Shown: piece after piece, positions 4,786 through 50,367 of the stretch | Position numbering within the stretch: the stretch's first letter is position 1 | How the letters are laid out: the number at the start of each line of letters is the position of its first letter | NCBI GenBank assembly: GCA_038727095.1 | Contig: JAVYWK010000008.1 | Span: forward strand, 1-64,000 | DNA: 64,000 nt | Reading direction: 5' to 3' | Origin: Thermofilaceae archaeon | GTDB taxonomy: Archaea > Thermoproteota > Thermoprotei > Thermofilales > Thermofilaceae | Notes under the pieces: model-generated | Databases searched by the model: none | Told to the model about the DNA's origin: nothing | The model's input: the letters and a program-made list of their open reading frames with translations, nothing else | Translations under genes and position numbers: made by a program

Positions 4786-5748
4786 ATGGCTTCACGCGTT
4801 TACGTGAGGAGGGTCCAGCAGGTTGGGTACTCCACTCTGGCTGTCGCGCTCCCGAAAAAGTGGGCCGTGAGGGTGGGCTTAGGTAAGGGGTCTAAGGTAG
4901 CAATCGAGGAGCTCCCAGACGGTTCTCTCCTAGTTAAGCCGGGTGGGGTGGGCGGAAGTGCTGGAGGGAGCGTGGTGGCCGAGCTTAACCTGCCCGATGG
5001 GAGCGAGGCTGAGGTGGAGAGGGGGATCATCGCGCTGTACGAGGCCGGCTACGACGTCATGAGGGTGACTGCACCGAACTCGGCGCTGAGGGCCGTACAC
5101 AGGATCGTGAGGAGGCTGAGCGGCGTTGAGGTGATCTCCGAGAGCACGGGTTCCGTAACCCTCGGGGTGGTGCTCGATCACGCCAGCTTGAGCTTCGAGA
5201 GGATCCTTTCCAGGATGGCTGAGCTGGTGCAGCTCTCTCTAGACGATTTAGCCGCTTACTCGAAGAGTGGGGGTATAGAGCTGCTAGGAAGGGTTGTTGA
5301 GAGGGATGATGAGCTCGACAAGTTCTACTTCCTGCTAGTCCGCCAGTCCTCGATTTGCCTCCGCGAACCCCACTTAGCCCGGGAGCTGGGGCTTAGGGGG
5401 GCAGCTGACATACACCCCCTGCTGCACTACGGGAAGACGCTGGAGAGGATGGGCGACATCCTCACACAGCTGGCCATGTACTTGAGCGAGTACGGCGAGC
5501 GGTTGGATGCGAACCTGTTCCATGCTCTAAAAAGGGCTTTCCAGCTCGCAGTTGACGCTTTCAACACCGGCGATCTGCCGGCCGCGAGGGAGCTCACGCT
5601 GCTCTACGCGAACTTCTTCTCCAGCTACGAGCCGGCCCGCATCCTCGGAAGCGTGCCGCTAGCTCTCATCACGAACTTTCTCGCGCTCTGCCTCGACGCG
5701 CTCGACAGTAGAGTTGAGCTGGAGGCCGCGAGAAAATCTATAAGCTAG
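4786..5748 (+). CDS. AbrB-domain/PhoU-domain regulator (phosphate uptake regulator family)
   Basis: RRVQQVGYSTLAVALPKKW AbrB N-terminus; ERDDELDKFYFL and LERMGD PhoU motifs. Confidence 0.8.
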   Translation: MASRVYVRRVQQVGYSTLAVALPKKWAVRVGLGKGSKVAIEELPDGSLLVKPGGVGGSAGGSVVAELNLPDGSEAEVERGIIALYEAGYDVMRVTAPNSALRAVHRIVRRLSGVEVISESTGSVTLGVVLDHASLSFERILSRMAELVQLSLDDLAAYSKSGGIELLGRVVERDDELDKFYFLLVRQSSICLREPHLARELGLRGAADIHPLLHYGKTLERMGDILTQLAMYLSEYGERLDANLFHALKRAFQLAVDAFNTGDLPAARELTLLYANFFSSYEPARILGSVPLALITNFLALCLDALDSRVELEAARKSIS

Positions 5749-5764
5749 GTACGGGGAGAGACGC

Positions 5765-6457
5765 GTGTCCTGGAAGGACGTTGCTGCGAGGATGCTCGAA
5801 TCCTCCGGCGCGCGCGTAGAAGAGGATCAAAGGGGGCTTAGGGTCACTATCTCCGATGCGAGCCTTTTGGTCCTCCTGAGGAGGCTCCAAATGAGCTTGG
5901 ATAGGAAGATCGAGGTTATCGGCATCTTCGAAGTTGAGGCGGACTGCCGCCCGCTCGGAGACGCTCTCAGAAGGATGCTATCGTGGTCCTTTGAGGTGGA
6001 GCTTAAAGGGCTAGTGCGTAAATCGTTCGTGTGGAAGCCGTGGAGGGAGCTGAGGATGCTCGAACGCGTTGTAGGATCGCTCGACTACGACCCCTCTCTA
6101 GCATCCAACCTGAAGGGGCGCGCGAGCCTCATTGAATCCTTGCACGCAGCCTCCCCGAACCTTATCGAAGTGTTCCCGGAGCTTCTCCCCACCAGCTTCA
6201 TGGAAACATTCCTCGTTGCCTCGGGGGCTCCCATGTCTGCCTACATCGCCACGCTGATTAGAGAACATTTACGGGAGCCGGGTAGACTCGCCTGGTGCTA
6301 TAGAGCGCAGTTCCTCTACGGCTCGCCTAAGATGCCCCAGAAAATAGTGAAGAACTGCCAGCTGGCGGCTTTGTTTAAGCGGGTGCTGAGCGAGGCTACG
6401 ACGAAGCTGCTGCAATGTAGCGCCTCCTCTCCTGCGCGGGTAGGGAGCTCCACATGA
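5765..6457 (+). CDS. hypothetical protein
   Basis: 230-aa ORF 16 bp downstream of the PhoU-like gene on the same strand; no motif recognised. Confidence 0.6.
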   Translation: MSWKDVAARMLESSGARVEEDQRGLRVTISDASLLVLLRRLQMSLDRKIEVIGIFEVEADCRPLGDALRRMLSWSFEVELKGLVRKSFVWKPWRELRMLERVVGSLDYDPSLASNLKGRASLIESLHAASPNLIEVFPELLPTSFMETFLVASGAPMSAYIATLIREHLREPGRLAWCYRAQFLYGSPKMPQKIVKNCQLAALFKRVLSEATTKLLQCSASSPARVGSST

Positions 6458-9400
6458 GCATCTGCTTACGCAGATCGTCGATGAAGCGGTAGTTCCCATC
6501 GACCCAAGGCCTGTCGGGGCCGGACAGTCTCTTCAGGTGGACGAGGAACACGTGCCTGTTCGCACCCCTATCGTACAACGCCTCCACCGTCACGCTCTGC
6601 TGGACGCCCGCCTCAAGGGGCGCTAGAGCTACCACCATCGAGAGGCTTCTAGCCTGGTAGTCGGGCTTCGAAAGCTCCCTCACCACGTGGACACCCTCCT
6701 TCACCGCGCCCGCCCCGCTGTAGTACTCGTACAAGTAGGCGAGCACGCCGCGCGCTTCAGCTTCAGAGGGGACGCTCATGGGCAGCGGGATCTCCCACGC
6801 GTCACCTCTCGGCTTCGTCGGCGGCTTCCACTTCCTCTCCAGCGAAGGCGTGATGAGGCGGGCTGCCAGGTAGGATGGGTAGGCGACCGCGGCGAGAGCA
6901 GCCCCCATGATGGCAAGCGACCCAACTATGGTGAAAGCTGATGCAAAGTTGAAGATGTGCTGCGGTGGGAGAGCGCCGAGCCCCATCATGGCGGCCGTAG
7001 TGAGGTACCCCAGCAAGTAGCCGAGGACGATGCCGACAGTTACGTAGACCAAGACCTCTGCGACGAAGAAGACCGTGATGCCCACCGGCGATAATCCGAC
7101 GGCGCTCAAGACGTAGATCTCCCTGGTCCTCTCCTTGAGGTTGCCCAGCACCATGATGGCTACGTTGAGGGATCCGATGATCAACAGGGTCACGACCATC
7201 TCCCAGCCGCCGACGGCGATCGTGGTGAACGTTGAGGAGGTGTAGGGTTGACCGTTGTCGGCGAACCACAGCGTCGTGTCTAGACCGTAAGCTAGCTCGC
7301 GCACCGTGTTGAAGAGATCATCGAAGGAGGTCTTCTGCAAGGGCACAACGGCTATGCTGGCCACGTAGCCGTTCAGCTGAAGAGCCTTCCTGAAGGGCAC
7401 TATGATCACCCTTGAAACGCCGAGGTTGGGGGGAGACGCCCCCGCCTGCAGCGAGACGGCTATGTCCTTGGCGAGGGTTTGGAAGAACATCGGGTCGGCC
7501 GGCATAGAGTTGTAGCCATCCGCCTCCACGATCCTATCGAAAGCCTCGGGAGACTCAATGATCCCAGTGACGATGAACTCCTGCCCGAGAACGTAGATGC
7601 TTTCTCCCAGCGCCAAGCTGAGGTTCTGGGCGAGAGCCTTGGAGATAATGGCGTAGTTGCCGTCATCCGACAGTAGACCGGCGCCGCTGGTGAAGTTCGC
7701 GTAAAGCAGCCTGTACTCCGCGGCGGTTATTCCTACGATCGCGGCAATAGTGGCATTCACGCCCTTCTCGCTGACCACCCTAAAGGCTACTTGCGAAATG
7801 CCCCTATCGACTGGCGGGTACACCCAAGCCCTCGGTAGAACCGCGTAGCGAGAGCCTGCCATCACTGCTACCACGTTCACGACGTCTTTGTTCAGCGTGG
7901 CTGGCGGGACGCCGCGCCCGTTCTTCGCCAGGATTCCATCGATGGTCGCCTGGTAGCCGTGGCGGACGACGGGTAGCGTGACCCTCGTCGGCATCAGGGA
8001 GGTGAAGGATGTGAGGGCGATAGCCATCGCGATGATCGTGGCTAGCATCAGCGCGGTCCTCAAGGGCCTGCGCCTTATGTACTCGCTCCCCATCGAGAAA
8101 GCTGTGATCACCGTGTCCATCCTGCTGACTTCCGCCCTGTGAACGCCCAGCACCCTACGCTCTATAGCGCTACGGAGGGTCTCGCCCTCAGAGCCCAGCA
8201 TTACGAGCGTGATGAGCAGGATTATCGTGATCAGCGAACCTATGAGGCCCAGAGAGAGATTGCTGATTATCGCGAAGGATGGGTGTATCAGTGAGAAGAA
8301 CCAGATCAGCGCCGCCGCCACCGTAACCATCACAGCGATCCTGCGCACACCCTCGCTGTGGATGAAGACCTTCTCGATGAAGAAGGCAGCGAAGGCTGCC
8401 AGCGGGAACATGTAGAGCATTGAGCGGGCGGCGTCGTTTACCAGGGGCATCACATCGGTGATGTAGGCTTTATACGCGTAAGCTCTCGCCACGAGCGAGT
8501 AGGCGTACGCTTCACTGTACCTTCTGGCATTGAAGGCCCTCTCGGCTCTATCCAGGTACTCTCCTGCCTTGCTGAGCGCTTCGTCCGCGCTGGGGCTCCC
8601 CACGTGCCGCTCTAGGAATACCCTGTACCTGCCGTAGGAGACCAGGTAGAAGTCCTTTGCAGCCAAGTAAGCTGTGGCAGGGAGCCTTATGGTCTGTCCC
8701 GGCTTACCGGAGAAACCGTAACCTTCCGTGTTGTCCAGCGTGGAGTTTGTAAGGAGTATGATGGTATTTAGCGCGGCTCTTTCTCCCATTCCGTAGTAGC
8801 CGGCGATCACGAACCTGAGGTTCGGCTGAACCCAAACCAGGGCTACGTCCTCGAAGCCGTTGTAGTAGAAGCCGTAGCTGAGAGGTAGACTCTTGCTGAG
8901 CAGGTCGTACGGCTGCAGCACCGCGGGCGCCTGCCTCCACCAGTCGAAGTAGCTCGTCCTTGGGTCGGGCATGCTCGGCGTATTGAGAGTTGAGGGTATG
9001 TTGACGTCGAAGAGCTCGACACTCACGCACTCGGTTAGAACCACCGTCACGTTCGTGTACGGGTGGAGGACGTGGATTATGAGGGGGAAGTTCTGCATAC
9101 CGAACTGGCCGAGATCTGTGGCCATGATCACGTTCCCGGATTCGTCGAGCACCCACCCCCTGACGAACCACCTCGAGAAAGGTACAACGGTTCCACCGTA
9201 AGCCCCCCTACCCGCGTGTGGGATCCCGTACACCGTGAATCGGCCCTCGCTGTCCGCCCTGACGAAGATCTTATTGAGCTTGTACGTCGATGTTATGAGC
9301 TGCAGCTCCACAATCGCGCGGGGGACTGGGTCGTACCAGCCCTTTGTGAAGTTGTACGTGACGGCTCGCCCGTAGAAAACGGTGAAACCAGCGTAACCTC

Positions 9401-10880
9401 TCTCGGCCGACAGATCGTAGCGCGTCGGAACGAGATGGGTCCTGCTGACCTGCCATTCAGAGTTGAGGAGCCGCACGACGATGTAAGAGGCGATCTCGAG
9501 GTAGGGTCTCAGTCGAGTGAAGTCCGCGTACCTCGAATCGTCGATGGGTATCCCGAGGTAAAGCCTACCCGAGCGCCTACTAACTATCGAGAAGGCGGGA
9601 AGACCCGCGATGGATACGGCCTCCGAGTCCAGCATGTAGGGGAAAGGCTCGGTGCCCCAGAAGCCTTGGTAGTTGAAGAAGATGCTCACGAGGCCTGACG
9701 GGTCTTCAACGCCTAGGGTGCTTTTAACGTAAGCTGTCACTGCATCCTCCCGTAGGATGCTTTGGACAGCCGTCATAACCCACGATAACCTCCCCGGGAA
9801 GCCACCGCTGTGGATCGAGTTTCCACCGTAAGTCGTGTAGAAGCTCGCATGAAGCAGCTGCAGCCCGTCGGCGTCGCTGGCGAACTTGTCTAGGCCTACG
9901 AATCCCCAAACTGTAATCCTTCCATTGGTTACGTTCTCGCTGAACAGGAGGTCCTCCACAAAAGCTCTCGCTCCAGCTAGAGCCTGCCAGTGGCCTGAGA
10001 GGAAGGCTACCCAAACGGTGTAGCGGGGGCGGTTCTCCTTGAGGTACTTCGCCAGCTCGAGTAGAAGCGCGGGCGCGACTGCTTCAACCCTGCTAGCTGC
10101 TAACGCTGGCACGACGGACCACGAGTCGAAGTGGGCTGACAGGATGACGACGTCGTTGGGCAGGCTGCCCTCAATTACCGCAACATAGTTGACGGCTTCC
10201 ACCTCCCTCCACTCCACCCGTGAAACGACTCTAACCCTTCTAGCGCTCTTGAGAATCTCCCAGTCGTTTCTTCTAACGTACAAGCGTGGGAAGTTCAAGG
10301 GCGTGTCAAGGAACTTCTTCTCGCACTCGAAGTAGGTGGTGTCGTCGGGCTCGATGAACACCACGGCCTTGGCCCCCAGCTTCGCGGCGTTGAGCCAGTT
10401 ATCCTGCGAGTTGAAATCCATCACGACTATGCTCCCTTCGACATCCTTCCCATCGAAATCTGACAGATCGCCGCGACCTACGTAGATCAGAACTCCTTCG
10501 AAGCCGCCCGGTGAGGTTGAAGAGGGGTTCACCCCGTTAGGGTACAGCGAGTGAGCCTGGATCCGCGCGGTGAAGGGCTCGAGAACCTCTATGTACGCTT
10601 CAACCTCGATCGGCACCAACACCTTAAACGTGTGGTTGATGACTTTGAGCCCGAGCTCGCGGCTTAAGAAACCATATATGTAGTCCGCCGCCTTATAGTA
10701 GCCTGGGTATCCGGTCATCCTCGAGCCGAAACTGGAAAGCGTGACTGCGTGCTGCTCAACGCGCGTAAAATCGATAAGAAGCAAACGCTCTCGGGGCTGT
10801 GCCGGTGCCACTTCAACCAGCTGGCCAACAGCCAGAACTAGTAGAATCCAAGCTGCAACAGCCGCGGCTTTTCGCTCCAT
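6396..10880 (-). CDS. large membrane protein: signal peptide, PA/M28-peptidase-like domain and FtsX/MacB-type permease domain
   Basis: Signal peptide; SRMTGYPG; PA-like IYVGRG...VEGSIVVM; ILSAHFDS; two TM clusters; KERTREIYVLSAVG FtsX signature. Start placed at ATG 10880. Confidence 0.8.
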   Translation of the reverse strand: MERKAAAVAAWILLVLAVGQLVEVAPAQPRERLLLIDFTRVEQHAVTLSSFGSRMTGYPGYYKAADYIYGFLSRELGLKVINHTFKVLVPIEVEAYIEVLEPFTARIQAHSLYPNGVNPSSTSPGGFEGVLIYVGRGDLSDFDGKDVEGSIVVMDFNSQDNWLNAAKLGAKAVVFIEPDDTTYFECEKKFLDTPLNFPRLYVRRNDWEILKSARRVRVVSRVEWREVEAVNYVAVIEGSLPNDVVILSAHFDSWSVVPALAASRVEAVAPALLLELAKYLKENRPRYTVWVAFLSGHWQALAGARAFVEDLLFSENVTNGRITVWGFVGLDKFASDADGLQLLHASFYTTYGGNSIHSGGFPGRLSWVMTAVQSILREDAVTAYVKSTLGVEDPSGLVSIFFNYQGFWGTEPFPYMLDSEAVSIAGLPAFSIVSRRSGRLYLGIPIDDSRYADFTRLRPYLEIASYIVVRLLNSEWQVSRTHLVPTRYDLSAERGYAGFTVFYGRAVTYNFTKGWYDPVPRAIVELQLITSTYKLNKIFVRADSEGRFTVYGIPHAGRGAYGGTVVPFSRWFVRGWVLDESGNVIMATDLGQFGMQNFPLIIHVLHPYTNVTVVLTECVSVELFDVNIPSTLNTPSMPDPRTSYFDWWRQAPAVLQPYDLLSKSLPLSYGFYYNGFEDVALVWVQPNLRFVIAGYYGMGERAALNTIILLTNSTLDNTEGYGFSGKPGQTIRLPATAYLAAKDFYLVSYGRYRVFLERHVGSPSADEALSKAGEYLDRAERAFNARRYSEAYAYSLVARAYAYKAYITDVMPLVNDAARSMLYMFPLAAFAAFFIEKVFIHSEGVRRIAVMVTVAAALIWFFSLIHPSFAIISNLSLGLIGSLITIILLITLVMLGSEGETLRSAIERRVLGVHRAEVSRMDTVITAFSMGSEYIRRRPLRTALMLATIIAMAIALTSFTSLMPTRVTLPVVRHGYQATIDGILAKNGRGVPPATLNKDVVNVVAVMAGSRYAVLPRAWVYPPVDRGISQVAFRVVSEKGVNATIAAIVGITAAEYRLLYANFTSGAGLLSDDGNYAIISKALAQNLSLALGESIYVLGQEFIVTGIIESPEAFDRIVEADGYNSMPADPMFFQTLAKDIAVSLQAGASPPNLGVSRVIIVPFRKALQLNGYVASIAVVPLQKTSFDDLFNTVRELAYGLDTTLWFADNGQPYTSSTFTTIAVGGWEMVVTLLIIGSLNVAIMVLGNLKERTREIYVLSAVGLSPVGITVFFVAEVLVYVTVGIVLGYLLGYLTTAAMMGLGALPPQHIFNFASAFTIVGSLAIMGAALAAVAYPSYLAARLITPSLERKWKPPTKPRGDAWEIPLPMSVPSEAEARGVLAYLYEYYSGAGAVKEGVHVVRELSKPDYQARSLSMVVALAPLEAGVQQSVTVEALYDRGANRHVFLVHLKRLSGPDRPWVDGNYRFIDDLRKQMLMWSSLPAQERRRYIAAASS

Positions 10881-10956
10881 ACATGTCCCACCGCTCAATG
10901 TACTTAAAAAACTATTCAGGCTAAAACCTTAAATCCCATCACAGTGGGAGGCGCGC

Positions 10957-12888
10957 ATGAGAGGAGGTGCGGATGCAACTTCTAATGGAGAAGGTTTTAG
11001 CACGGGACTGACATGGAGGAGCCTCCTCGCGATGATTCTCGCGGGTCTAATCTTCTTGCCGGCGTCGACGTACCTTTGGCTCGCTGTAGGCGCCGGGGCT
11101 AGTGTAGCTGCTACCTACATCACCGTTATCCTGTTCAGCGCGTTAGCCAGGCTCTACGGCGCCAGCCTATCGAGGCAGGAGCTGTTCATCATCTACTCTG
11201 TAGTGGGCGGCATCGGAGGCGCAATGCCCCTATTCTACTGGCTAGTCTTTAGGAGCTACTTCGTCAACAACCCACTAAGCCTCGAGTTCAAGCTTAATGG
11301 GCTCCCAGTCCGAGACCTTGTCCCCTACTGGATGTCCCCGCCCGTTAACTCTCCAGCCCACGCGCTTAGAACGTTGTTCTACCCCGACTGGCTGCCGGCG
11401 ATAGCGGTGAGCATCACGTTCGCGGCGCTGGGCCTTCTAGCCGAAATATCGATAGGCATCCTGATTTCCTACCTCTACATCGAAGTGGAACCCCTACCCT
11501 TCCCCTTCGCGCAGATTGACGCGACCATGATCAACACGCTGTACGAGCGAGAGCACGAGCCGCTTCTCTACTTCTTCAGCGCTCTGATCGGCGGTGCCAT
11601 TTACGGTACGCTAGTGTACTTAGTCCCCCTAGTACTGGGGCCCGGTGCAGCGGTGATCCCATACCCCTGGATTGACCTGACACCCTATACCCAGTACTTC
11701 CTGCCAGGAGCGGCGATCGGTATCGCCACAGAGCCCACCGGCTTTCTGTACGGTATGATTCTCCCGCCCACGGTCACTTTCTCACTCATGCTCGGCTCGC
11801 TGGCGACGTGGGTCTTTGGGAACACGCTAACTTACACTATGTTTAGGGACTTCTCACCGGAGTGGGTAAGAGAGTATACACCGGGGATGAGCATCTTCCT
11901 CATCTACCAGAGGGCAACTCTACGGCTATGGCTGTCCACATTCATGGGGATCAGCTTCGGCCTCGCCCTCTTCATCATCGCTACCTCCTGGCGCAAAATC
12001 GCTGCCTCGTTTAGAGCGTTAACCCGCCTTGGGGGCACAAGGCGGGAGCTGGGGTACCCCTCCTCTACCTTCCTAGTCGCGCTTTTCTTCGCTTCCACCC
12101 TAGCTAGCGTGCTCCTCTACTACGCGTTGGTGCCAGGTGTACCCCTCTGGCTCCCCCCCTTCGTTTCGATCGGTTTGAGCTTCGTGATGGCGCTAGTAGG
12201 CGCGCGGGTTTACGGGGAGCTCGGCCTAACGTTCAGCTCCGATTTCGTCTACAACATGTGGAAAGCAGCCATCTACTTCAGCCCCTACCAGGGCTATGCG
12301 GGCTGGATTTACACGCCTGTAATCGCCGGCTTCTCTACGCCCTGGTATGCGAACGCGACGAAGGTGGCCTACCTCACCAGGACGAGACCGATCGACTACT
12401 ACAAGGCTGTTCTGGTAGCCTTCGTAATCACGACAACGCTGGGGCTCGTCTTCATGGACTTCTTCTGGAGGATGGCTCCGATCCCCTCCTTCGTATACCC
12501 TTACGTGATGGGCCTCTGGCCCTTCTACGCGATCAGCGACTGCCTTTTCGCCACTAGGCAGATCGTGATCAGAGCCGATCAGATACTCGGCGGAGCTGGG
12601 GTCGCCCTTGCAGCGGGCTTCGCAGGCTTCCTCCTCTCCAGAATTGGGGTGCCGATTAACCCGATTGCGCTAGTGGGAGGCACTTACGCGCTACCCCCCT
12701 ACACAATCATGGTTTTCATAACATCCATTCTAAGCAGGTACGTCGTTTCAAGAGCTATCGGTAGGGAGAAGTGGGAGCGGATACGATCAGTTGTGATAGC
12801 CGGCTTCCTAGCCGGCGTAGGAATAATCGTAGCAGTCGGAGTCGCAATCACCCTCCTCTCAAAAGCGGCTTGGATCTGGCCCTGGTAA
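10957..12888 (+). CDS. OPT (oligopeptide transporter)-like polytopic membrane protein
   Basis: GLTWRS N-terminus, LSRQE, EPLPFP motif, many hydrophobic helices, C-terminal AGFLAG. Confidence 0.75.
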   Translation: MRGGADATSNGEGFSTGLTWRSLLAMILAGLIFLPASTYLWLAVGAGASVAATYITVILFSALARLYGASLSRQELFIIYSVVGGIGGAMPLFYWLVFRSYFVNNPLSLEFKLNGLPVRDLVPYWMSPPVNSPAHALRTLFYPDWLPAIAVSITFAALGLLAEISIGILISYLYIEVEPLPFPFAQIDATMINTLYEREHEPLLYFFSALIGGAIYGTLVYLVPLVLGPGAAVIPYPWIDLTPYTQYFLPGAAIGIATEPTGFLYGMILPPTVTFSLMLGSLATWVFGNTLTYTMFRDFSPEWVREYTPGMSIFLIYQRATLRLWLSTFMGISFGLALFIIATSWRKIAASFRALTRLGGTRRELGYPSSTFLVALFFASTLASVLLYYALVPGVPLWLPPFVSIGLSFVMALVGARVYGELGLTFSSDFVYNMWKAAIYFSPYQGYAGWIYTPVIAGFSTPWYANATKVAYLTRTRPIDYYKAVLVAFVITTTLGLVFMDFFWRMAPIPSFVYPYVMGLWPFYAISDCLFATRQIVIRADQILGGAGVALAAGFAGFLLSRIGVPINPIALVGGTYALPPYTIMVFITSILSRYVVSRAIGREKWERIRSVVIAGFLAGVGIIVAVGVAITLLSKAAWIWPW

Positions 12889-12980
12889 AAGCATTCCGGT
12901 TTTCGGAAAATCCCTCACTCTTTAATTGCCTTAAAAAGGTTCGAGTAATGCTTAAATAGGATCTACTTACTACCCCCTCA

Positions 12981-15089
12981 ATGGCGACGGAAGTTAGGAA
13001 GGAGGTTGTAGAGTTTCTGCCGGGGATTACGGTTCGATCGTTGGCGCTCAGTATTCCGCTAGTGCTGTTGTACGCCTACTTGAGCGTCGTTGTCGGCTTG
13101 TACACGGATAAGAGCGGAACCTTCGGAACCTTCATCCTACCAATGATCTACCTCATCATCATCAACGAGTTTCTCGCAAGAGCCAACCCCAAATGGAGAC
13201 TCACACCACAAGAATGGGTCTTCACCTTCTCCCTCATCACCTTCATGGGAATGCACAGCTTCCTGACGATGCACGCGGCGGCGCACGTTAACCCGCCCCA
13301 GTACATTTGGACTTGTATTCCTTGGGGTGATTATCTGGCTTTTACGATTGATTCGTTGAGGGATTATTGGAGTCGTGCTGTTCCTGCTGTTTCGATTCCT
13401 CCTGAGCCTTTGCGGTTTGATGTGGCTCGGATGGTGGTGCAGGGTCGTAGTCCTGGTGAGGTGATCTCGTGGGGTGCTGTGTTGCAGCCTTTGTTTTACT
13501 GGGGTCTTGTCTACGTGTTCTACAGCTTGATTAGTGCTTGGGTTGCTTTCGTGTTTGGGAAGCCTTGGGCTGAAGAGGAGAGGTTGGTCTTCCCGCTAGC
13601 TGTCCCCAGCCTCTACCTGTTTAGGGAGGCTACTGAGGTTTCCACCGGCAACAAGTCGAGACTCTTCGACTTCACCCTACCACACACGAAGGTCTTCTGG
13701 GCAATGTTCGCAGTCGGAATCATCAGCGGAATCAACCCAATCCTCGCCGAACTCCTACCAGCCTTCCCAATCGCAGCCTGGTGGGGAGAAACCAACGTTT
13801 CGTTACCTTTCCTGGCAGCCCTCTGGCCTGGGGTCTACGCTGCTGCGATATTCTTCATCCCACAGATCGCCGTGGGTCTCGTCATGCCCAACGACGCGCT
13901 GATCACACTCGTCCTCTGCTGGATCATCTTCGGCCTACTCTACCAGGGTATCGGAGTCATGACCGGTGTCCTACCGTACAGGCCTGGGATGGAGTACGTC
14001 TGGCCGTGGGAGGACTACCCTGGTGTTTGGATGCCATTCCCCTACCGCTTTGTAGCTGCGAACGGTGTGGGCTTGTCCATAATAATCTGGATGCTGTACA
14101 GGTATAGGAGGAGGTTTGTTGAAGTGTTATCGACGTTGTGGAAGAGGGATGTTGTGGAGCAGGGTCTCTCGCTGAGGCTCGCCACAGTGCTGATGCTTAT
14201 CGGCTTCTTCGGCTGGTACGCGCTAATGGTAGCAGAGCAGGCAAGCCCAATCGTAGCACTACTCGTACCGATCTGGGCGCTCCTCTGGAACATCTGCTTC
14301 GCGAGAGTGTATGCAGAAGTCTTCTGGCACGTTGGTACTGGCTGGGGGCACACCTGGATCCCAACGTACGAGTTCGGCAGGTTGGTGCACGGTTGGCCGA
14401 GCTACACTGACGTAGGATGGGATAACCCGAACATGAACCCCGCCTGGTTCACCGTCGCTCGACACATAGCGAACCTGCACAACTGGAACATAAGCTTCAG
14501 CCCGCTCACCGCGGGTCACCAGGTTACACTCTACAAGTTGGCTCATGATTTGAGGATGAGGATGACTGATCTACTGGTTGCTATTGTGCTGGGCTCAGTA
14601 ATCTTCTCCTTCGTCGCCATGCCGCTCGCCGCCTACTTCATCCTGCATACGAAGGGAGGGCTCAACGCGACGAACGCTGCAGGAGCCAACTGGTGGCCTT
14701 GGATGGCTGCCGGCTGGTACCATAGGGGCTACTGGATGGGTACTGGCATGACCCCCGATGTTGTCGGCTGGCTGTTCTACGGCGTTGGCATCGCGCTCGG
14801 CATCATCCTCTACCTGCTGAAGACGTACGTTGCACTCTTCTGGTTCATCAACGTCCCAGCCCTCTACGTTGGCATGACCATTGTAACGTACATGTGGTTA
14901 ACCTCGCTGCTCGCTCTCATCATCAAGTTCGTCGCGATCAGAACTGTCGGAATCAAGAGGTACGAGGAGTACGCCATGCCCGCCTGCGCCGGGTGGATCC
15001 TCGGCTTCGGCGCCGCGTGGCTCCCCGCAGCGCTCGCAAACCTCTTCGCCGTCGTAATACCCAGAGTAGGAGCACTCTGGCTACCTTAA
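12981..15089 (+). CDS. OPT-related polytopic membrane protein (DUF6785-like)
   Basis: GITVRS, LTPQE, EERLVFPLA and C-terminal AGWILG echo the upstream gene; many TM helices. Confidence 0.7.
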   Translation: MATEVRKEVVEFLPGITVRSLALSIPLVLLYAYLSVVVGLYTDKSGTFGTFILPMIYLIIINEFLARANPKWRLTPQEWVFTFSLITFMGMHSFLTMHAAAHVNPPQYIWTCIPWGDYLAFTIDSLRDYWSRAVPAVSIPPEPLRFDVARMVVQGRSPGEVISWGAVLQPLFYWGLVYVFYSLISAWVAFVFGKPWAEEERLVFPLAVPSLYLFREATEVSTGNKSRLFDFTLPHTKVFWAMFAVGIISGINPILAELLPAFPIAAWWGETNVSLPFLAALWPGVYAAAIFFIPQIAVGLVMPNDALITLVLCWIIFGLLYQGIGVMTGVLPYRPGMEYVWPWEDYPGVWMPFPYRFVAANGVGLSIIIWMLYRYRRRFVEVLSTLWKRDVVEQGLSLRLATVLMLIGFFGWYALMVAEQASPIVALLVPIWALLWNICFARVYAEVFWHVGTGWGHTWIPTYEFGRLVHGWPSYTDVGWDNPNMNPAWFTVARHIANLHNWNISFSPLTAGHQVTLYKLAHDLRMRMTDLLVAIVLGSVIFSFVAMPLAAYFILHTKGGLNATNAAGANWWPWMAAGWYHRGYWMGTGMTPDVVGWLFYGVGIALGIILYLLKTYVALFWFINVPALYVGMTIVTYMWLTSLLALIIKFVAIRTVGIKRYEEYAMPACAGWILGFGAAWLPAALANLFAVVIPRVGALWLP

Positions 15090-15091
15090 AA

Positions 15092-15140
15092 GAGAATAAG
15101 AGTAAAATAGAAACTTTTTCTTTTTATTTTTCTGTTTTTC
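15092..15140 (+). terminator. oligo-T tract, probable archaeal terminator at a convergent gene junction
   Basis: ctttttctttttatttttctgttttttc directly after the stop at 15089. Confidence 0.45.
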
Positions 15141-15756
15141 TATCTATTAGCTCCTTTAGCGAGTATACTGTTTGAGCGTATAGCTTCATCTGTTTTAACC
15201 CTGCTAGTGGGGGTACGAGGCTTTCTTTCCTCAGCTCACCCAGCCTTCTAACCAGCTCCTCTTCCCCTACGCCGAGCATCCTGGCTGCTTCTGAGAGACT
15301 ACCGCTCTTGGCGATTGCTTCGAGAACTTGCATAGCTTCCTCCCTACCTAGAGCCTTCAAGCCTGCCAGCAGGTTCAGCACGGCATCCTCGACAGCCCCT
15401 TTAACAGTGTTGTAGAGCTCCTCTTGATCGACTACCAGCAAGTCGCTGAGCTCTAGGAGCTCAACCCCCAGTTTCGCGGCGAGCACCTCTGCCTCCTTGC
15501 TGAGGGCGCGCGCCACGAGTAAAGGCTTCGCGTTGAGTAGGACTGAGTTCGCGTAGAGGAGCTTCACGTCGGAGGGGCTGGCTTGACCCGCCTTCACTTC
15601 CACCGCGTACAGCTCACCATGGGGGCCTCTTGCCAGCAGATCAACTTCGCCGACCTCGAAGCCGTCTACCCTGATCCTAGCAGACTCCTCTATCACCTTG
15701 AGGCCCCTGCTCTCCAAGACCCTCTTCGCTATCTCAACGCTAGCCCTTCCCCTCAC
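15124..15756 (-). CDS. PD-(D/E)xK endonuclease-fold protein with C-terminal HTH
   Basis: GEVDLLA...AVEVKAG motif; C-terminal SLSEAARMLG helix-turn-helix. Confidence 0.75.
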   Translation of the reverse strand: MRGRASVEIAKRVLESRGLKVIEESARIRVDGFEVGEVDLLARGPHGELYAVEVKAGQASPSDVKLLYANSVLLNAKPLLVARALSKEAEVLAAKLGVELLELSDLLVVDQEELYNTVKGAVEDAVLNLLAGLKALGREEAMQVLEAIAKSGSLSEAARMLGVGEEELVRRLGELRKESLVPPLAGLKQMKLYAQTVYSLKELIDRKTEK

Positions 15757-15786: not shown

Positions 15787-16818
15787 CTAGAGGCGCCAGT
15801 ACCTCCTCAGCAGAGCTTTGAGCTCTGTCATGTACTCCCTAGCCAAGCTTAGGATGGGCTCCGGAGAGCGCTTGAGGGGAGCATCGACGCTCATGCCCTC
15901 GAGGGCCCTGAGGAAGGCGGGAAGGCCGAACTCAAGACCCTCAGAGTACCCTCCCTCAAGGATAGCAGCAACCCCCTTCGCGCCGATCTCTCGGGCCACT
16001 TCGCCCAACCTTTGAAACGCGCGTTCGCCCGCTTTGAGGTGCGTCAAGCCGTCACCGTCGAAGGCGTCGAAGCCCGCCGAGAACACCAGGGTCTCCGGCT
16101 TGAACTCCCCGAGCAGGGGGATTACGATCTCCTCGATCGCTAGGGCGTAAACATCGTCGCTGCTCCCGGGGGGCAGTACCACGTTCACCTTCGTCCCCTC
16201 CCCTTCGCCCTCACCAACGTCCACGGGGAAGCCGGTCCCCGGGTACAGTGTCGTAGGGTCTTCGTGCAGGTCGATGTGGAGGACGCAGGGGTCGCTGTAG
16301 AAGATCTCCTGCGTCCCGTTCCCGTGGTGAGCGTCGAAGTCCACAACAGCCACTCTCCTCAGCCCAAGCTCGAGCAACCGCGCGACAGCGAGCGCCGCGT
16401 TGTTGAACACGCAGAAACCCTGTGTGGGGGCCCCCATAGCCCGCCCCCTCTTGCTGGCGTGGTGGCCGGGAGGCCTTACGAGAGCGAAAGCCCCTTCTCC
16501 TCGGGCTGCAAGCTCGGCAGCTTGAAGCGAGGCTCCCGCAGCTGCGAGCGCGGCCCTCATGGTTCCGGGCGAGAGGTACGTGTCCGAGTCTATGAGCGAG
16601 ACTCCGGATCCCACGTAGCGCGCTATCCTGGCCACGTAATCGGGCTCGTGAACCCGGTGCAGGTCCTCCACGCTTCCGCTGCGGGGTTCAACGAGCTCGA
16701 TGCTAATGCCGCTGCGCTCGACGGCCTCCAGCGCGAGCAGTAGGCGATCGGGCCTCTCCGGGTGCGGGAATGGAGGTTTATGCTCGAGGAACGCAACGCT
16801 GTACAACACGCTCAGCAT
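15787..16818 (-). CDS. histone deacetylase family (Zn-dependent deacylase)
   Basis: HPERPDR, RPPGHHA, GFCVFNN, DFDAHHGNGTQ, SAGFDA and LEGGY motifs. Confidence 0.92.
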   Translation of the reverse strand: MLSVLYSVAFLEHKPPFPHPERPDRLLLALEAVERSGISIELVEPRSGSVEDLHRVHEPDYVARIARYVGSGVSLIDSDTYLSPGTMRAALAAAGASLQAAELAARGEGAFALVRPPGHHASKRGRAMGAPTQGFCVFNNAALAVARLLELGLRRVAVVDFDAHHGNGTQEIFYSDPCVLHIDLHEDPTTLYPGTGFPVDVGEGEGEGTKVNVVLPPGSSDDVYALAIEEIVIPLLGEFKPETLVFSAGFDAFDGDGLTHLKAGERAFQRLGEVAREIGAKGVAAILEGGYSEGLEFGLPAFLRALEGMSVDAPLKRSPEPILSLAREYMTELKALLRRYWRL

Positions 16819-16870: not shown

Positions 16871-17800
16871 GTGCGGCCCCTTACTGTTACTGTTGTACTG
16901 GCAGTGGTGGCAGTTGCCCTCGCGCTACCATACCAGCCTCTAGTCGTTGTCACCCTCTACCAGGGGGGTCTCGCCCGCATCGATTACTTCGTCCCAACGG
17001 GGGGCAACGTGAGCCTCGCCATACCGCTCATCAGCGACCCGGATGAGCAGCTGGGGGTTGTAGTCGTAGACGAGTGGGGGGAGGCTTTGGCGTACGGGGT
17101 GAACAGAACCCTCAACGCGCTCTTCGTAACCTGCTTGGACTGTGGGCTGGTTAAGGCTTCCTACTACACCCAGACGCTGACTTCGAAGCAGGGTGCTGTT
17201 TGGACCCTCAACTTGACCGCCCCTTACAGGGTGCGCGTTGTTTTACCCGAGAACGCGACGGTCGTTGGAATGAGCAGGCTTCCGGACACCGTCTACAGCT
17301 CCGCTGAGAGGCTGGTCCTTGAGTTTGGGGCCGGCCCTTTGACTCTGCAGTACATCATCCTTTACACTGCGCCACCCCAGCCCGCGGCTCAGCAGCCCGC
17401 CACCGCACCAACCACTGAGACTCAACCCCCCGAGGAGAAGACTGCTCCCCAACAACCCCCAGCGCAGGTTCAGCAGCCCCCCGCTGAGCCCTCTTGGTAT
17501 CAGCTGTTCAAACCCCCGTTTATCTACGCCCTAGCCGCAGCGGTGGCCCTCGTCGCCGCTGCAGTGGTCTTCGCTCTCAGAAGGAGGGGGGCAGCGATGG
17601 AGCTGGTCGAGCTGAGCGAGGAGGATACGGCGATCCTCAACGCGCTGCGCAACCTGGGTGGCGGCGCCTTCCAGAGCGAGCTGCAGAAGGTGCTAAGCAT
17701 GCCTTCCACCACCCTCTGGAGGAGGGTGAAGAGGCTGGAGCAGCTGGGCTACGTCAAGGTCGAGAAGAGGGCTGGGAGGAACTACATCAAGATCGCTTGA
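16871..17800 (+). CDS. membrane-anchored protein with extracellular domain, P/Q/T-rich linker, TM helix and C-terminal winged HTH
   Basis: Signal peptide; PPQPAAQQPATAPTT linker; TM helix followed by RRR; FQSELQK...TTLWRRVKRLEQLGYV wHTH. Confidence 0.8.
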   Translation: MRPLTVTVVLAVVAVALALPYQPLVVVTLYQGGLARIDYFVPTGGNVSLAIPLISDPDEQLGVVVVDEWGEALAYGVNRTLNALFVTCLDCGLVKASYYTQTLTSKQGAVWTLNLTAPYRVRVVLPENATVVGMSRLPDTVYSSAERLVLEFGAGPLTLQYIILYTAPPQPAAQQPATAPTTETQPPEEKTAPQQPPAQVQQPPAEPSWYQLFKPPFIYALAAAVALVAAAVVFALRRRGAAMELVELSEEDTAILNALRNLGGGAFQSELQKVLSMPSTTLWRRVKRLEQLGYVKVEKRAGRNYIKIA

Positions 17801-18893
17801 TGCTGGCCAGCTTCACCAGCCTGTTCTCGTCCACTTCCACGCCGAGCCCCGGGCCGGTTGGCAGGCTCCTCCTACCCCTCTCCACCGTTGAGCCTCCGCG
17901 CGCGCAATCGGAGGCGAGTAATAGATCCGAGTCCAAGTCGTAGTACACGATGTTCCGCGCGCTGGCGGAGAGGCACACCGCACCCGTGATGCCCAGCCTA
18001 CCCTCCCCCATGCAGCCTACCATGTTGGCGAGCCCCGCAGCCTCGCTGGCGTGGGCGACGCGTAGCGCTCCCAGCAGCCCCCCGCTCTTCATCACCTTGA
18101 TGTTCACTATGTCGGCCGCCTCATGCCTCGCGATCCTAAACACGTCGGAGGCCCTCTTCACGCTCTCATCGACAGCGATGGGGAGGGGGCTCTCCCTCCT
18201 CACCCTCGCTAGCCCGTGCAGGTCGTCCCACTTGACCGGCTGCTCCACGTACTCGACGTCGTAGCCCGCGATCCTGCTGATCACCCTAACCGCCTGCTCG
18301 ACCGTCCAACCCTGGTTCGCGTCCACCCTGATGCGAACCCCCTCGCCCACCGCGTCTCTAACGGCCCTGACGCGCTCCACATCCTTCTCCGGGTCGAGGC
18401 CGAGCTTCAGCTTCAGGATCCTGAAGCCGTCCTCGACGAACTTGACAGCCCTCTTTGCCTGCTCCTCCGGCTCCATTATTCCGATCGTGATGTCCGTCTC
18501 GACGCTGTCGCGGTAGGGGCCCCCCAGCAGCGCGACCACGCTGGTCCTCGCGCTCTTCGCCCAAGCGTCGAGAACCGCTTCTTCGATGGCCGCTGCCGCG
18601 CTCGGAGAGGGACAGGATGCGCAGAGCTCGTAAAGCCTCTCGGGGCTCGGGTCCCGCTCGGCGAGCAGCCCCTCAGCAAGCTGCTTAGCACCTGAGACGA
18701 CGAGCCCTCTGGTTTCGCCGAGCACAGTGTAGGAGGGGGATCCCTCACCCCAACCCGTTGTGCCGTCCTCCAGCCTCACCCTTACGATGACGTTCCACGA
18801 GGCGGACGAGCTGCCAGTTGCGATCGTGAACACCTCCCTGTAGGGGAGCTCGACGCAGTAGACCTCTACGCTCTCAACGCGTGCCCAGCTCAC
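17787..18893 (-). CDS. dipeptide epimerase (L-Ala-D/L-Glu epimerase family, enolase superfamily)
   Basis: GWGE, KLK, DANQGW, EQP, DES, KVMKSGG, GCMGE and DLD motifs. Confidence 0.88.
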   Translation of the reverse strand: MSWARVESVEVYCVELPYREVFTIATGSSSASWNVIVRVRLEDGTTGWGEGSPSYTVLGETRGLVVSGAKQLAEGLLAERDPSPERLYELCASCPSPSAAAAIEEAVLDAWAKSARTSVVALLGGPYRDSVETDITIGIMEPEEQAKRAVKFVEDGFRILKLKLGLDPEKDVERVRAVRDAVGEGVRIRVDANQGWTVEQAVRVISRIAGYDVEYVEQPVKWDDLHGLARVRRESPLPIAVDESVKRASDVFRIARHEAADIVNIKVMKSGGLLGALRVAHASEAAGLANMVGCMGEGRLGITGAVCLSASARNIVYYDLDSDLLLASDCARGGSTVERGRRSLPTGPGLGVEVDENRLVKLASIKRS

Positions 18894-47689: not shown

Positions 47690-50367
47690 GGCTGATGGTT
47701 GCCCAGAGAAGGTTCATACTCACCGTGCTCCCGCTGCTCCTCGCTGTCGCGCTGGCTGGAGCAAGGGGTCAGGGGGTCAGAGAGGTGAGGGTGTTCAACC
47801 CGCTCCCCTACCCCCGCAGCGAGATCATAAGGTTGAACCTCAATTTCCTGGAAGGTGAAGCTTACAATGGGACGCTCAGCATCCGGGATTCCTCGGGCAA
47901 CCCAATCCCCCTCCAGCTGGTTAACTGCACCTTCTACCCTTCCGGGCACTACAAGAGCTGCTCCCTCCTATTTCGGGCTGATCTACCACCCTTGAACGTA
48001 ACTCGGTACTTCATTACGTACTACTCGGCCCCGCCCGGGTACAACGTTAGCGTCCATGGGGGGTTGAGCGTCCGTTCCGCTAACCTGACCCTCGTTGCTT
48101 TCAATGCTACGGGCTCCTACGCCATCAATGTGACTAAAGCCATTATGGTCAGAGGGCCCGGTTACACAGTCATATTCAGCAACTCGTCTCTCGTTAACTT
48201 CCTCTTCGATGACGTGGGCGGCAACCTCGTCTTTGTCGACTGGCCGCTGGCGGGTTTCGTGGTTATGAGGAACCTAACGATCGCGGCTAGCGGCTACGAT
48301 TTGAAGGAGTGCCAGGTTAAGCTGCTACTCAACGGGACGCTCGAGGCGAAGGTCGAGCAGGTTTGCCGCCATGGTGGGTTCGAGCTCAGTCAGGTGTTTA
48401 CGTTCAGCGGTTTATCGGCCTTCGTACGCGTCGACGCGCGGCTAAAGGGGGTGGAGGAAGGGCTCCTCTTCTTCCCCTTCCTGAGGCTCGCCGCCTCTGA
48501 TTTTCGCGAGGCAATAATCAACGCGACCAGCGTTAGTGTAAGCCGAGAGCGGAGCTACGTTCCTGCCCCCCGCTGGCTGGCGCTGAGGGGTGGAAGAGGG
48601 TGGTTAGTTGTAGCTGTTAACTACACAAGTGTTGACCCGAGGTCCGTGCTGGAGGCGCAGAGGCTCACTCTCTTCAGGAGGTACGTTAACGAGACGCACC
48701 CGCTGCAGAAGGCGCTTTACGAGCGTTTACTGAAGATCCACGGAAACCTCACGAGAGTTCTAACAGCTGGTCAGCTTGCAGAAGCGGGAAGGCTAAACCT
48801 CACGCAAACATTGAGAGAAGCTGACTACCTCGCGGCTTTCAGTTCTGAGAGGGACCTCCTCCTTAAGAACCTGACAGACTTACTCGAGGCGACTGAGAGA
48901 GTGGCTAGCAGGCTCCTATTCATGCCTCAAGAGGGGGCTCTCAACATAGCGTACCAGGTAGGGAGGAGGGAAGCTAGCATCAATGCAACAATCGTTCTGG
49001 CGGTAGTCACAGAAAGCCCCCGCGATCTCGTTAGGTTCTCCCTCTTGAGCGCGGTCGCTACACCGGCCGTACTCTACGCCCCTATTGAGGCCCGACTCGA
49101 CGCGCCAACCACCGTCTACGTTGACGATTACCTCCCAGTTAGCGCCGTCGTAAGATCAGCGGAGGGCCTGCGCAACGTCAGCGTCAGGCTAGTGCTCCCG
49201 GAGCATGCATTCGCGGTTGTAGAGGGCAGGAAAAGCGTTAACTTCACGCTCCTGCAGGGCACGCAGAGGGTTGATTGGACTCTGAGAGCGATGTACGAAG
49301 GCAGCTGGCCCATTCTCCTCAACGTGTCAAGCCCGTGGGGTAGCCTCATCCTTGAGAGAACCATCAACGTTTCGCTACTGCCCATCGTACCACGCGTCAT
49401 CATCCCCAGAGCATTCAACGCGACGATCATTTGCATCGATGCGCAGGGTAGACCCCTCTCGGGTTACCTGGTTAACCTCTACGAGAACGCTACTCGCGTG
49501 TTGGTACGCTGGGGGTTCACGAACGAGAGCGGCCTGCTGCGCTTCACAAACGTCACCGCCGGCGTGTACCGCATTGAGGTCACAGATGGTTTCCACAGCA
49601 CATGGAGCACCGTCTACATCTACTCTGACAGAAACTTCACCGTGAGCGTAGGCTTGTCCAACTTGAGGGTCAGGGTCGAGCTGGCCGAGGGGCGTCCTCT
49701 ACCCCAAGCGGCTGTCTACGTTCGAGATGAGGAGGGCAGCCTCGTCTGCGCGGGCTTCACAGATGCTAACGGCACGGTGCTGTGCACCGGTCTTCCTCGC
49801 GGCAACTATACGGTATCCCTGCGGTGGCAAGGGGCGCTCGCCGGCTCCACACGCGTTTCCCTAACTAACGATACCCAGGTTGTGCTAAGGGGGCTCGTGA
49901 GGCTTGTGACAGTCTACGTCTCGCTAGGCGGAAGCCCAGCGGCTGGCGCCGTCGTAGCCGCGTTCTCGCCTGGAGGGACCCTAATTGCTACTACATACAC
50001 AGATGAAAGAGGGATAGCCCAGTTGTACCTGCTCCCCGGCCCCTACCGGTTCACCGCTACAAAGGGCCAGTACAGTTCAAGCGTAACTGCCGACGTCAGG
50101 GTCGGCGGGTACGTAGAGCTAAACCTGACGCTTTCACCAAGCCTCTGGCTGCTAATCGCAGTAACCGCCGCGTTGTGGTCGGTCACAGCTTACGTATGGC
50201 ACCGGAGGACAAGTTACGTGTACAGGGAGAGGGAGCGGTACAAGCGCCTCCTTCAGCGGCTCGAGGAGCTTTACGGTAGAGGGGAGGTTGAGGAGAGGTT
50301 CTACGTGAAGCTTAAACAGGAGTACGAGACGAAACTAAACGAGCTGAGCCGAGGTGAGTGGGAGTGA
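47686..50367 (+). CDS. membrane-anchored surface glycoprotein with carboxypeptidase-regulatory-like repeats and SHOCT-like tail
   Basis: Signal peptide; about 30 N-x-S/T sequons by hand count; three G.P..GA.V...TD..G...G.Y repeats; TM helix; LYGRGEVEERFY. Confidence 0.8.
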   Translation: MRLMVAQRRFILTVLPLLLAVALAGARGQGVREVRVFNPLPYPRSEIIRLNLNFLEGEAYNGTLSIRDSSGNPIPLQLVNCTFYPSGHYKSCSLLFRADLPPLNVTRYFITYYSAPPGYNVSVHGGLSVRSANLTLVAFNATGSYAINVTKAIMVRGPGYTVIFSNSSLVNFLFDDVGGNLVFVDWPLAGFVVMRNLTIAASGYDLKECQVKLLLNGTLEAKVEQVCRHGGFELSQVFTFSGLSAFVRVDARLKGVEEGLLFFPFLRLAASDFREAIINATSVSVSRERSYVPAPRWLALRGGRGWLVVAVNYTSVDPRSVLEAQRLTLFRRYVNETHPLQKALYERLLKIHGNLTRVLTAGQLAEAGRLNLTQTLREADYLAAFSSERDLLLKNLTDLLEATERVASRLLFMPQEGALNIAYQVGRREASINATIVLAVVTESPRDLVRFSLLSAVATPAVLYAPIEARLDAPTTVYVDDYLPVSAVVRSAEGLRNVSVRLVLPEHAFAVVEGRKSVNFTLLQGTQRVDWTLRAMYEGSWPILLNVSSPWGSLILERTINVSLLPIVPRVIIPRAFNATIICIDAQGRPLSGYLVNLYENATRVLVRWGFTNESGLLRFTNVTAGVYRIEVTDGFHSTWSTVYIYSDRNFTVSVGLSNLRVRVELAEGRPLPQAAVYVRDEEGSLVCAGFTDANGTVLCTGLPRGNYTVSLRWQGALAGSTRVSLTNDTQVVLRGLVRLVTVYVSLGGSPAAGAVVAAFSPGGTLIATTYTDERGIAQLYLLPGPYRFTATKGQYSSSVTADVRVGGYVELNLTLSPSLWLLIAVTAALWSVTAYVWHRRTSYVYRERERYKRLLQRLEELYGRGEVEERFYVKLKQEYETKLNELSRGEWE

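Follow-up and report, generated by a model that had tools for sequence, protein, structure and literature searches.

The window analysed here, a 64,000-nucleotide stretch of contig C8 from a Thermofilaceae archaeon, carries between positions 6396 and 15089 three genes that most likely make up one cassette of a membrane machine with five components; the genome has six such paralogous cassettes. The genes, here called BIG, A and B, encode a MacB/FtsX-type (ATP-binding cassette, ABC, of type VII) permease and two proteins that, on profile and model evidence, are distantly related permeases of the oligopeptide transporter (OPT) superfamily. The probable remaining components, a minimal FtsX protein and an ABC ATPase, are encoded by a gene pair on another contig of this genome, and in bacteria all five genes form one operon. 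The components come from known families; the combination is new. The trio is probably a copy of a widespread membrane machine for nutrient uptake. More specifically, we regard it as an even proposition that a type VII ABC motor is coupled here to two OPT-fold permeases for the uptake of oligomers, with contacts, inward direction and substrate that we infer. Three open reading frames (ORFs) fill the region, as the original prediction for this DNA had described:

6396-10898, minus strand: BIG, an ORF of 1500 residues with a TTG start; 1494 residues from the likely ATG start at 10880
10881-10956, no strand: divergent spacer between BIG and A, 76 bp, with two A+T-rich, TATA-like boxes at 10902-10913 and 10927-10937 (by eye)
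10957-12888, plus strand: A, 643 residues, polytopic, a divergent member of the OPT/Yellow-Stripe transporter superfamily
12981-15089, plus strand: B, 702 residues, polytopic, DUF6785 family, a remote homologue of A

BIG, a type VII permease with an altered M28-like head

BIG is a MacB/FtsX-type permease with a large outer head and a conserved tail domain. Its parts, all on the minus strand, are as follows:

10800-10880: N-terminal hydrophobic segment, signal peptide or membrane anchor (residues 7-33, read from the translation)
9459-10796: extracellular PA/M28-like head (residues ~35-480; Pfam, alignment to 2ek8, alignment of paralogues and column counts over 65 members)
8424-9458: middle extracellular region (residues 481-825; no family match)
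8124-8423: three extra transmembrane helices and a cytoplasmic linker before the FtsX module (residues 826-925)
6849-8123: MacB/FtsX-type permease module (residues 926-1350; transmembrane helix 1, TM1, the periplasmic core domain and TM2-4)
6399-6848: cytoplasmic C-terminal alpha+beta domain (residues 1351-1500; ~140 residues)

Residues 1235-1347 match Pfam FtsX (PF02687) at 40.5 bits against a cut-off of 25.5, which all six BIG paralogues of this genome pass, and the match to MacB_PCD (PF12704) lies just below its cut-off of 27, at 26.8 bits. A model of residues 820-1500, built on a 56-sequence alignment, reached a predicted local distance difference test (pLDDT) score of 90.7 and gave 45 Foldseek matches at E<=1e-3. 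The matches listed are all type VII permeases or their periplasmic domains: MacB, LolC/E (LolCDE), HrtB (HrtBA), YbbP (YbbAP), YtrF (YtrEF) and BceB (BceAB). The periplasmic core domain, of the Porter/Sabre type, superimposes on the periplasmic region of MacB (3ftj; Z 13.9, root-mean-square deviation 3.3, 179 aligned residues) and on YknZ (5f9q; Z 12.8, deviation 2.6, 161 aligned). BIG therefore shares with type VII ABC systems a four-helix FtsX module that carries this core between TM1 and TM2. Unlike them, it adds about 800 extracellular residues, three extra helices (2-27, 32-52 and 62-98 in the model) and the cytoplasmic tail domain.

The tail domain, which the original prediction did not mention, is the best conserved part of the protein, with a median identity of 41.5% to 64 archaeal members as against 25-36% elsewhere, and its last helix is retained in bacterial members too. 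It resembles KA1, Aha1 and helix-grip domains at Z 8-9.4, a middling and commonly reached range from which no function is drawn; the ESM Atlas held no usable match for it. At the other extreme, residues 481-825 are the most divergent part, with a mean identity of 25% among the six paralogues. NCBIfam offered no useful family for BIG, A or B. The domain make-up first read from this protein of about 1.5 kaa agrees with these results: the PA/M28-like and FtsX/MacB parts are seen in the Pfam matches and the model, and the hydrophobic N-terminus in the translation.

The head is related to peptidases in fold and departs from them at the active site. BIG matches Pfam Peptidase_M28 at 34.9 bits (cut-off 21.3), over profile positions 1-78 of 193 only; one of the paralogues matches positions 1-183, and one gives a weak match to Nicastrin (E 0.00094). 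The match to Pfam PA, at 19.8 bits, is below the cut-off of 23.9. Residues 132-316, comprising a PA insert and an M28 core, align to the PA-domain M28 aminopeptidase 2ek8 (E 1.8e-05), which shares both elements. Unlike such aminopeptidases, the head is fused to a membrane permease. The HFDS motif is kept, whereas a conserved His-Trp stands in place of the Glu-Glu pair that supplies the catalytic base and a zinc ligand, and Glu takes the position of the last His. At the position of the pair, five of the six paralogues have His-Trp and one has His-Tyr.

The same substitutions extend across the family. In an alignment of 65 archaeal members made with hmmalign, glutamate stands at either position of the pair in 0/65. 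The replacing residues are frequent (His303 in 51/65, Trp304 in 45/65, Glu426 at the position of the last His in 60/65), as are the first His (His256, 42/65), Asp258 (65/65) and an acid at 272 (62/65). The catalytic Glu and the full co-catalytic set of zinc ligands (His, Asp, Glu, Asp, His) that mark the M28 family are thus missing, as is a full-length profile match for BIG. In 14 aligned bacterial members the first His is also lost, and the equivalent of Asp337 is gone in most. The original prediction had the surface protein capture or trim its substrate. Trimming is weakened by the loss of both catalytic glutamates in all archaeal members, which makes cleavage by the normal M28 mechanism unlikely, and by the loss of further metal ligands in bacteria. 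To judge from the alignment columns, the metal site in archaea is remodelled and conserved, not decayed. M28-like pseudo-peptidases, such as nicastrin and the transferrin receptor, have lost catalytic residues and act as binding modules. The loss seen in BIG parallels theirs, and its head most likely has a binding role, although it might conceivably be a non-canonical enzyme.

The OPT-like proteins and the conserved cassette

A has no Pfam match of its own at E<=0.1, and its affiliation emerged from its family and its fold. An exhaustive search with A returned 491 clusters at E<=1e-3, and a family alignment of 76 sequences was assembled from 70 of the 150 listed (about every second rank), A itself and its five paralogues in this genome. 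Among these 76, 35 members match Pfam OPT (PF03169) at E<=0.01, the best at 1.3e-17, and one of the five paralogues (locus L015, 8355-10292) passes the cut-off of 25.8 with 45.6 bits. The AlphaFold model of A (pLDDT 93, predicted template modelling score 0.92) has the OPT/Yellow Stripe-like (YSL) fold. At E<=1e-3, Foldseek found only two matches in the PDB, both of them barley YS1 (HvYS1): 7wst at E 2.4e-12 and 7wsr at E 2.1e-11, with template modelling scores of 0.61-0.69. The next match had an E of 5e-03 and a score of 0.10.

B is filed under a different family name. It matches DUF6785 (PF20581) at 65.3 bits against a cut-off of 25; no match to DUF6784 (PF20580) was reported for B, and its paralogues on contigs C10 and C18 match that family at 32.8 and 53.4 bits. 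Plain BLASTP between A and B was not significant (best E 0.10) and was replaced by a profile-profile comparison, in which the two families aligned with a probability of 99.9 (hhalign, E 4e-35, 580 columns). The relationship is therefore visible only at the profile level, and B is tied to OPT only via A. Given this alignment, DUF6785/DUF6784 would be a far branch of the OPT superfamily. The four motifs reported earlier as common to both proteins are present (GLTWRS in A and GITVRS in B, LSRQE and LTPQE, EPLPFP and ERLVFP, AGFLAG and AGWILG). They are aligned to one another in the profile-profile alignment and fall on near-invariant columns of both families (G17, T19, E75, L180, F182, P183, G616 and G620 in A; T17, E78, E200, L202, F204, P205, G671 and G675 in B). 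The description of both polytopic proteins as OPT-like is borne out in this way, for A by fold and family matches and for B by alignment to A. Known OPT proteins are stand-alone, proton-coupled importers without a tie to an ABC motor. HvYS1 is reported to be a homodimer joined through scaffold domains, for which an elevator-like model was proposed (PMC9691689); by that precedent, a heterodimer of A and B is conceivable.

The trio is repeated within the genome, a paralogy that had not been foreseen. Six BIG paralogues were found from our own ORF calls and phmmer (E 1e-238 to 7e-111). A adjoins each of them and B adjoins five, the exception being the copy on contig C16, and gene order and orientation vary among the six. 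Together the cassettes occupy ~49 kb, or 2.6% of the 1.86-Mb genome (52 contigs, 92% complete). Of 61 related genomes, 35 also have BIG at E<=1e-10, with up to 12 matches per genome; the complete genomes of two cultured-looking genera gave no match. For a survey of gene neighbourhoods, 60 full-length BIG loci from 21 other archaeal genomes were taken in rank order. Matches starting within ~1.5 kb of a contig start were left aside, as was a lower-ranked one (G009:C1:398241) that came after the 60 places had been filled. In 60/60 of these loci, A and BIG are at most 2.5 kb apart, and B falls inside the 7.5-kb flank in 51/60. Co-occurrence of the trio, on which the original prediction had staked its case, thus goes far beyond chance and extends to the bacterial operon described below.

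Clustering of the neighbours at 66 archaeal loci revealed no further conserved partner and no other family in more than 8 loci; the most frequent were URO-D-like proteins (8/66), pyridine-nucleotide oxidoreductases (6/66) and GFO/IDH/MocA proteins (6/66). The recurring neighbours are mixed, and several are related to sugars, each in at most 6/66 loci: GFO/IDH/MocA, xylose-isomerase-like, GH130, GHL6 and fucose-isomerase-like. In this genome, fucose-isomerase-like genes lie a few kilobases from three BIG or B loci (C10, 18059-19462; C42, 11290-12687; C31, 14785-16356). A PfkB kinase gene is found on C10, and the window holds a rhamnosidase gene (19-1662) and a gene for an MR_MLE dehydratase-like protein (17787-18893). 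Three close paralogues of B do not stand beside BIG (C31, 12117-14348; C40, 30-983; C5, 81927-83339; E 1.9e-273 and 1.9e-158), and two of the three are cut by contig ends.

At the locus itself, the length of the divergent spacer depends on the start of BIG. The 76 bp given originally hold if BIG begins at the ATG at 10880 (ORF residue 7), the position at which its ESM Atlas record also begins; from the TTG, the spacer would measure 58 bp. Each of the two TATA-like boxes lies ~25 bp from one of the two start codons, and B has a box of its own at 12950-12960, ~25 bp before its start (all by eye). Boxes so placed would be consistent with divergent transcripts that lack leaders and with a promoter of B's own. 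Among the runs reported to contain the stretch, those of DNA are labelled as hot-spring metagenomes and the only one of RNA as a sediment metagenome. Contigs of one metatranscriptome library, 90-99% alike, cover parts of BIG, A and B; such contigs show no strand, ends or level, and their depth cannot rank genes, so only the fact of RNA cover is used here. Over 13114-14849, the summed contig depth of the RNA library on B is far above that on the flanking genes, while the depth of two DNA runs stays flat; strong transcription of B is no more than hinted at. The cassette is flanked by genes for a PhoU+AbrB/MazE-type regulator (4786-5748, plus strand), a UPF0102/HTH protein (15124-15756, minus strand) and a histone-deacetylase-like protein (15787-16818, minus strand). 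In 4-5 other genomes, BIG cassettes have neighbours from these families too, and the position of the cassette may accordingly be conserved.

The probable ATPase motor and other FtsX genes

The original prediction had called for a search for a dedicated ABC ATPase, and a candidate was found through bacteria. In a metagenome-assembled genome (MAG) of Desulfobacteraceae, a BIG homologue (24% identity over residues 113-1494) stands in the order small FtsX, ABC ATPase, BIG, DUF6785/6784. Of 301 genomes sampled from that bacterial phylum (Desulfobacterota-type), 17 carry DUF6785, and 17 loci from 16 of these carriers were surveyed. In 10/17, the whole series small FtsX, ATPase, BIG, B, A is present as one co-directional operon. 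BIG is found in 15 of the loci; its neighbour is the ATPase in 14 of these, and the ATPase has the small FtsX at its side in 13, with contig ends accounting for the misses. In 13/17 loci B is followed by A, and two loci (L116 and L119) carry B, or B and A, without BIG nearby. The presence of two different FtsX proteins in one operon recalls LolC/LolE.

In the archaeon, contig C2 encodes the best match of the bacterial ATPase, at E 5e-103 with 66% identity across 220 residues:

contig C2, 90283-91689: archaeal small FtsX and ATPase gene pair, encoded once in this genome

Directly before the C2 ATPase gene lies that of a 211-residue FtsX protein, which has hardly any outer loop and shares 38% identity with its small bacterial counterpart. 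For the ATPase itself, MJ0796 is the closest match (E 8e-75), with MacB, YtrE and LolD next in line, which makes the MJ0796/LolD-type ATPases its nearest kin. In 19 of 20 other archaeal genomes, this ATPase gene directly follows that of the small FtsX; in the twentieth, a contig end intervenes. The cassettes themselves have no such genes: the six modules of this genome are all free of ABC ATPase genes within ~10 kb, and a MacB-type ATPase or small FtsX is found in 0/60 of the surveyed archaeal loci, which gave two weak generic ABC matches. A dedicated ABC ATPase thus probably exists, encoded in cis in bacteria and by an orthologue in trans here. Since the pair is encoded once and on another contig, it is probably common to all six modules. 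Three features set this arrangement apart from known type VII systems: a second FtsX with almost no outer loop, two OPT-fold proteins as constant partners, and a single motor gene pair that in this archaeon faces six or more permease genes. The minimal FtsX and the MJ0796-like ATPase both go beyond the original prediction.

Across the 61 relatives, orthologues of the small FtsX are set off by a natural gap in score (5e-59 to 6e-17). With BIG taken at E<1e-50, 26 genomes hold both proteins, 5 hold BIG only, 1 holds the small FtsX only and 29 hold neither, figures that describe a pattern of presence and not a statistic because kin genomes are not independent. In the single genome with the small FtsX only, the gene's contig measures 3.4 kb and has the same score as a contig of another MAG. 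A physical pairing was explored by modelling. The predicted complex of BIG residues 919-1500 with the small FtsX scored 0.42, against 0.00 for the best control; the runs agreed in at least 85% of contacts, with a partner pLDDT of at least 68. The mark for pairing is reached by 116 of 157 solved complexes and by 2 of 215 mismatched pairs, and scores up to 0.60 account for only 18 of those 157 and for both passing mismatches. Because LolC/LolE-like heterodimers have already been solved, the pass may only reflect likeness to them. The model weakly suggests that BIG may pair with the small FtsX.

Further FtsX genes lie outside the cassettes. The genome has 13 FtsX matches and only two gene pairs of FtsX and ATPase. 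On contig C11 (8829-9563, locus L083), a stand-alone MacB-type ATPase gene, whose product is 74% identical to the C2 ATPase, lies beside an ABCE1-like gene; it may serve other orphan FtsX proteins. One large orphan FtsX of 1089 residues is encoded in the window (50358-53627, plus strand; PF02687 at 52449-52799), with no ABC ATPase match within ~10 kb. Contig C12 (8523-13901, locus L019) encodes a 1792-residue protein in which glycoside hydrolase family 2 domains are joined to an FtsX permease. Two large proteins, unannotated or CarboxypepD_reg, are encoded on its flanks, and it has no OPT-like neighbour. With this fusion, FtsX seemingly serves here as a base for several outer enzyme-like heads. 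Elsewhere in the window, the G+C content falls to 0.51-0.54 between 38000 and 44000, compared with ~0.60 in the rest, and this segment may be foreign or mobile DNA.

Proposed mechanism, alternatives and significance

Under the preferred reading, BIG and the minimal FtsX would form a LolC/LolE-like pair on a dimer of the MJ0796/LolD-type ATPase. The head would bind an extracellular oligomer, either a peptide or a glyco-conjugate, and ATP-driven mechanotransmission through the FtsX pair would move the periplasmic core domain and the head. The ligand would then be released to A and B and carried inward across the membrane. In this archaeon, one motor pair would be common to six cassettes of different substrate specificity. 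Such a machine offers a functional analogy, and only that, to the binding-protein-dependent ABC importers, with which it would share an outer binding module, an ATPase and many paralogous cassettes per genome; it differs from them in that the permease is of type VII, not type I or II, and in that the presumed path runs through the OPT-fold pair instead of the ABC permease. Three points count towards import: characterised OPT/YSL proteins are importers, these small heterotrophs have 3-12 BIG matches per genome, and genes of sugar catabolism lie near several cassettes.

Other results weigh against uptake of this kind. To our knowledge, none of the characterised type VII ABC systems (MacB, LolCDE, FtsEX, HrtBA, BceAB, YbbAP) imports; all work outward or within the envelope. 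The bacterial operon is usually single-copy, as 16 of the 17 carriers have one DUF6785 match, and a GT28-like glycosyltransferase lies near it in 6/17 loci, directly upstream and next to the small FtsX in the gene maps inspected (L003, L107 and L114). In L107 a polysaccharide deacetylase, and in L108 a PMT-type transferase, likewise adjoin the small FtsX, and neighbours of these three kinds fit a role in export or in the envelope. The five genomes with BIG only are 69-99% complete and have no small-FtsX orthologue; three of them hold an ATPase 69-72% identical, an ambiguous finding as it could be the second paralogue, the counterpart of the C11 ATPase. Within BIG, the identity of the head among paralogues (33.5%, compared with 25-36% for other parts) shows that it is not more divergent than the rest and so lends no special support to specificity borne by the head. 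A weak search found no fusion of A to BIG and no longer fused form of A, and the sugar-catabolism theme consists of raw neighbour counts.

Several of these points would suit a five-component machine that works outward, with A and B flipping or releasing a glycolipid, a lipid-linked glycan or an amphipathic product, and the MacB-type pair extracting it and passing it to the head or the surface, much as in LolCDE or YbbAP-TesA. The outward action of all characterised type VII systems, the single copy in most bacterial carriers and the glycosyltransferase, deacetylase and PMT-type neighbours speak for such a machine; YbbAP is reported to be a lipid extractor (PMC12646458). Against it stand the import function of characterised OPT-fold proteins, including YS1 (PMC9691689), and the 3-12 copies per small archaeal genome, an unusual number for a housekeeping function of the envelope. 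In addition, no glycosyltransferase family recurs near the 66 archaeal loci. We consider this outward machine rather unlikely, although it is the foremost of the alternatives.

Clearly less probable is that the head works as a non-canonical metallohydrolase under the control of the ABC motor, in the way that FtsEX switches PcsB, EnvC or RipC, and cuts extracellular polymers whose products A and B take up. The conservation of the remodelled site in archaea, at the six columns counted above, would be in keeping with catalysis, and control of hydrolases by FtsEX-type systems is established. The idea sits poorly with the absence of either glutamate of the M28 pair from every archaeal member, with the ligands lost in bacteria and with the truncated M28 profile match. 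Two further explanations are very improbable. The structural matches of BIG's permease include BceAB and MacB, and many paralogues could suit many toxins, as expected if the module sensed or neutralised toxic peptides or membrane-active compounds that the OPT-like proteins then removed; yet neither a two-component system nor an immunity gene is a recurrent neighbour of the 66 archaeal loci, and BceAB-type permeases have ten helices, unlike BIG. That BIG and the OPT-like proteins are mere neighbours of independent function could be argued from the stand-alone B paralogues (on C31, with fragments on C40 and C5) and from the two bacterial loci without BIG, but A stands beside BIG in 6/6 loci of this genome and in 60/60 of other archaea despite varying order and orientation, and in bacteria the same set is one co-directional operon.

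The literature searched, with subscription journals outside its scope, held no description of a characterised system of this architecture, in line with the original prediction. Nothing was found there on DUF6785, DUF6784, PF20581 or PF20580. Judged by title and abstract, nothing relevant turned up on FtsX, OPT and M28 together in archaea; for type VII ABC, oligopeptide transporter and FtsX, the matches listed concerned FtsEX, MacB, LolCDE, YbbAP or unrelated topics.

The conserved gene set ties type VII ABC proteins, known only for work outward or in the envelope, to OPT proteins, known only as stand-alone secondary importers, and so points to a mode of coupling absent from the literature searched. 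The motor genes, part of the operon in bacteria (in cis) and encoded apart, once per genome, in archaea (in trans), yield a concrete, testable list of subunits: ATPase, minimal FtsX, BIG, A and B. A motor encoded in trans would also explain the 'orphan' FtsX permeases seen by annotators. With six cassettes taking up so large a share of the genome, the machine probably has a central part in the feeding or surface building of these uncultured heterotrophs from hot springs. A bolder version of the uptake reading, which is possible though doubtful, is that of a new class of hybrid transporter, in which a MacB-type motor would be physically coupled to an OPT-fold heterodimer, the first importer on a type VII architecture, with one motor serving many interchangeable receptor-permease cassettes. 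If true, this hybrid importer would be a main route of nutrient uptake in uncultured Thermoproteota and in several bacterial phyla.

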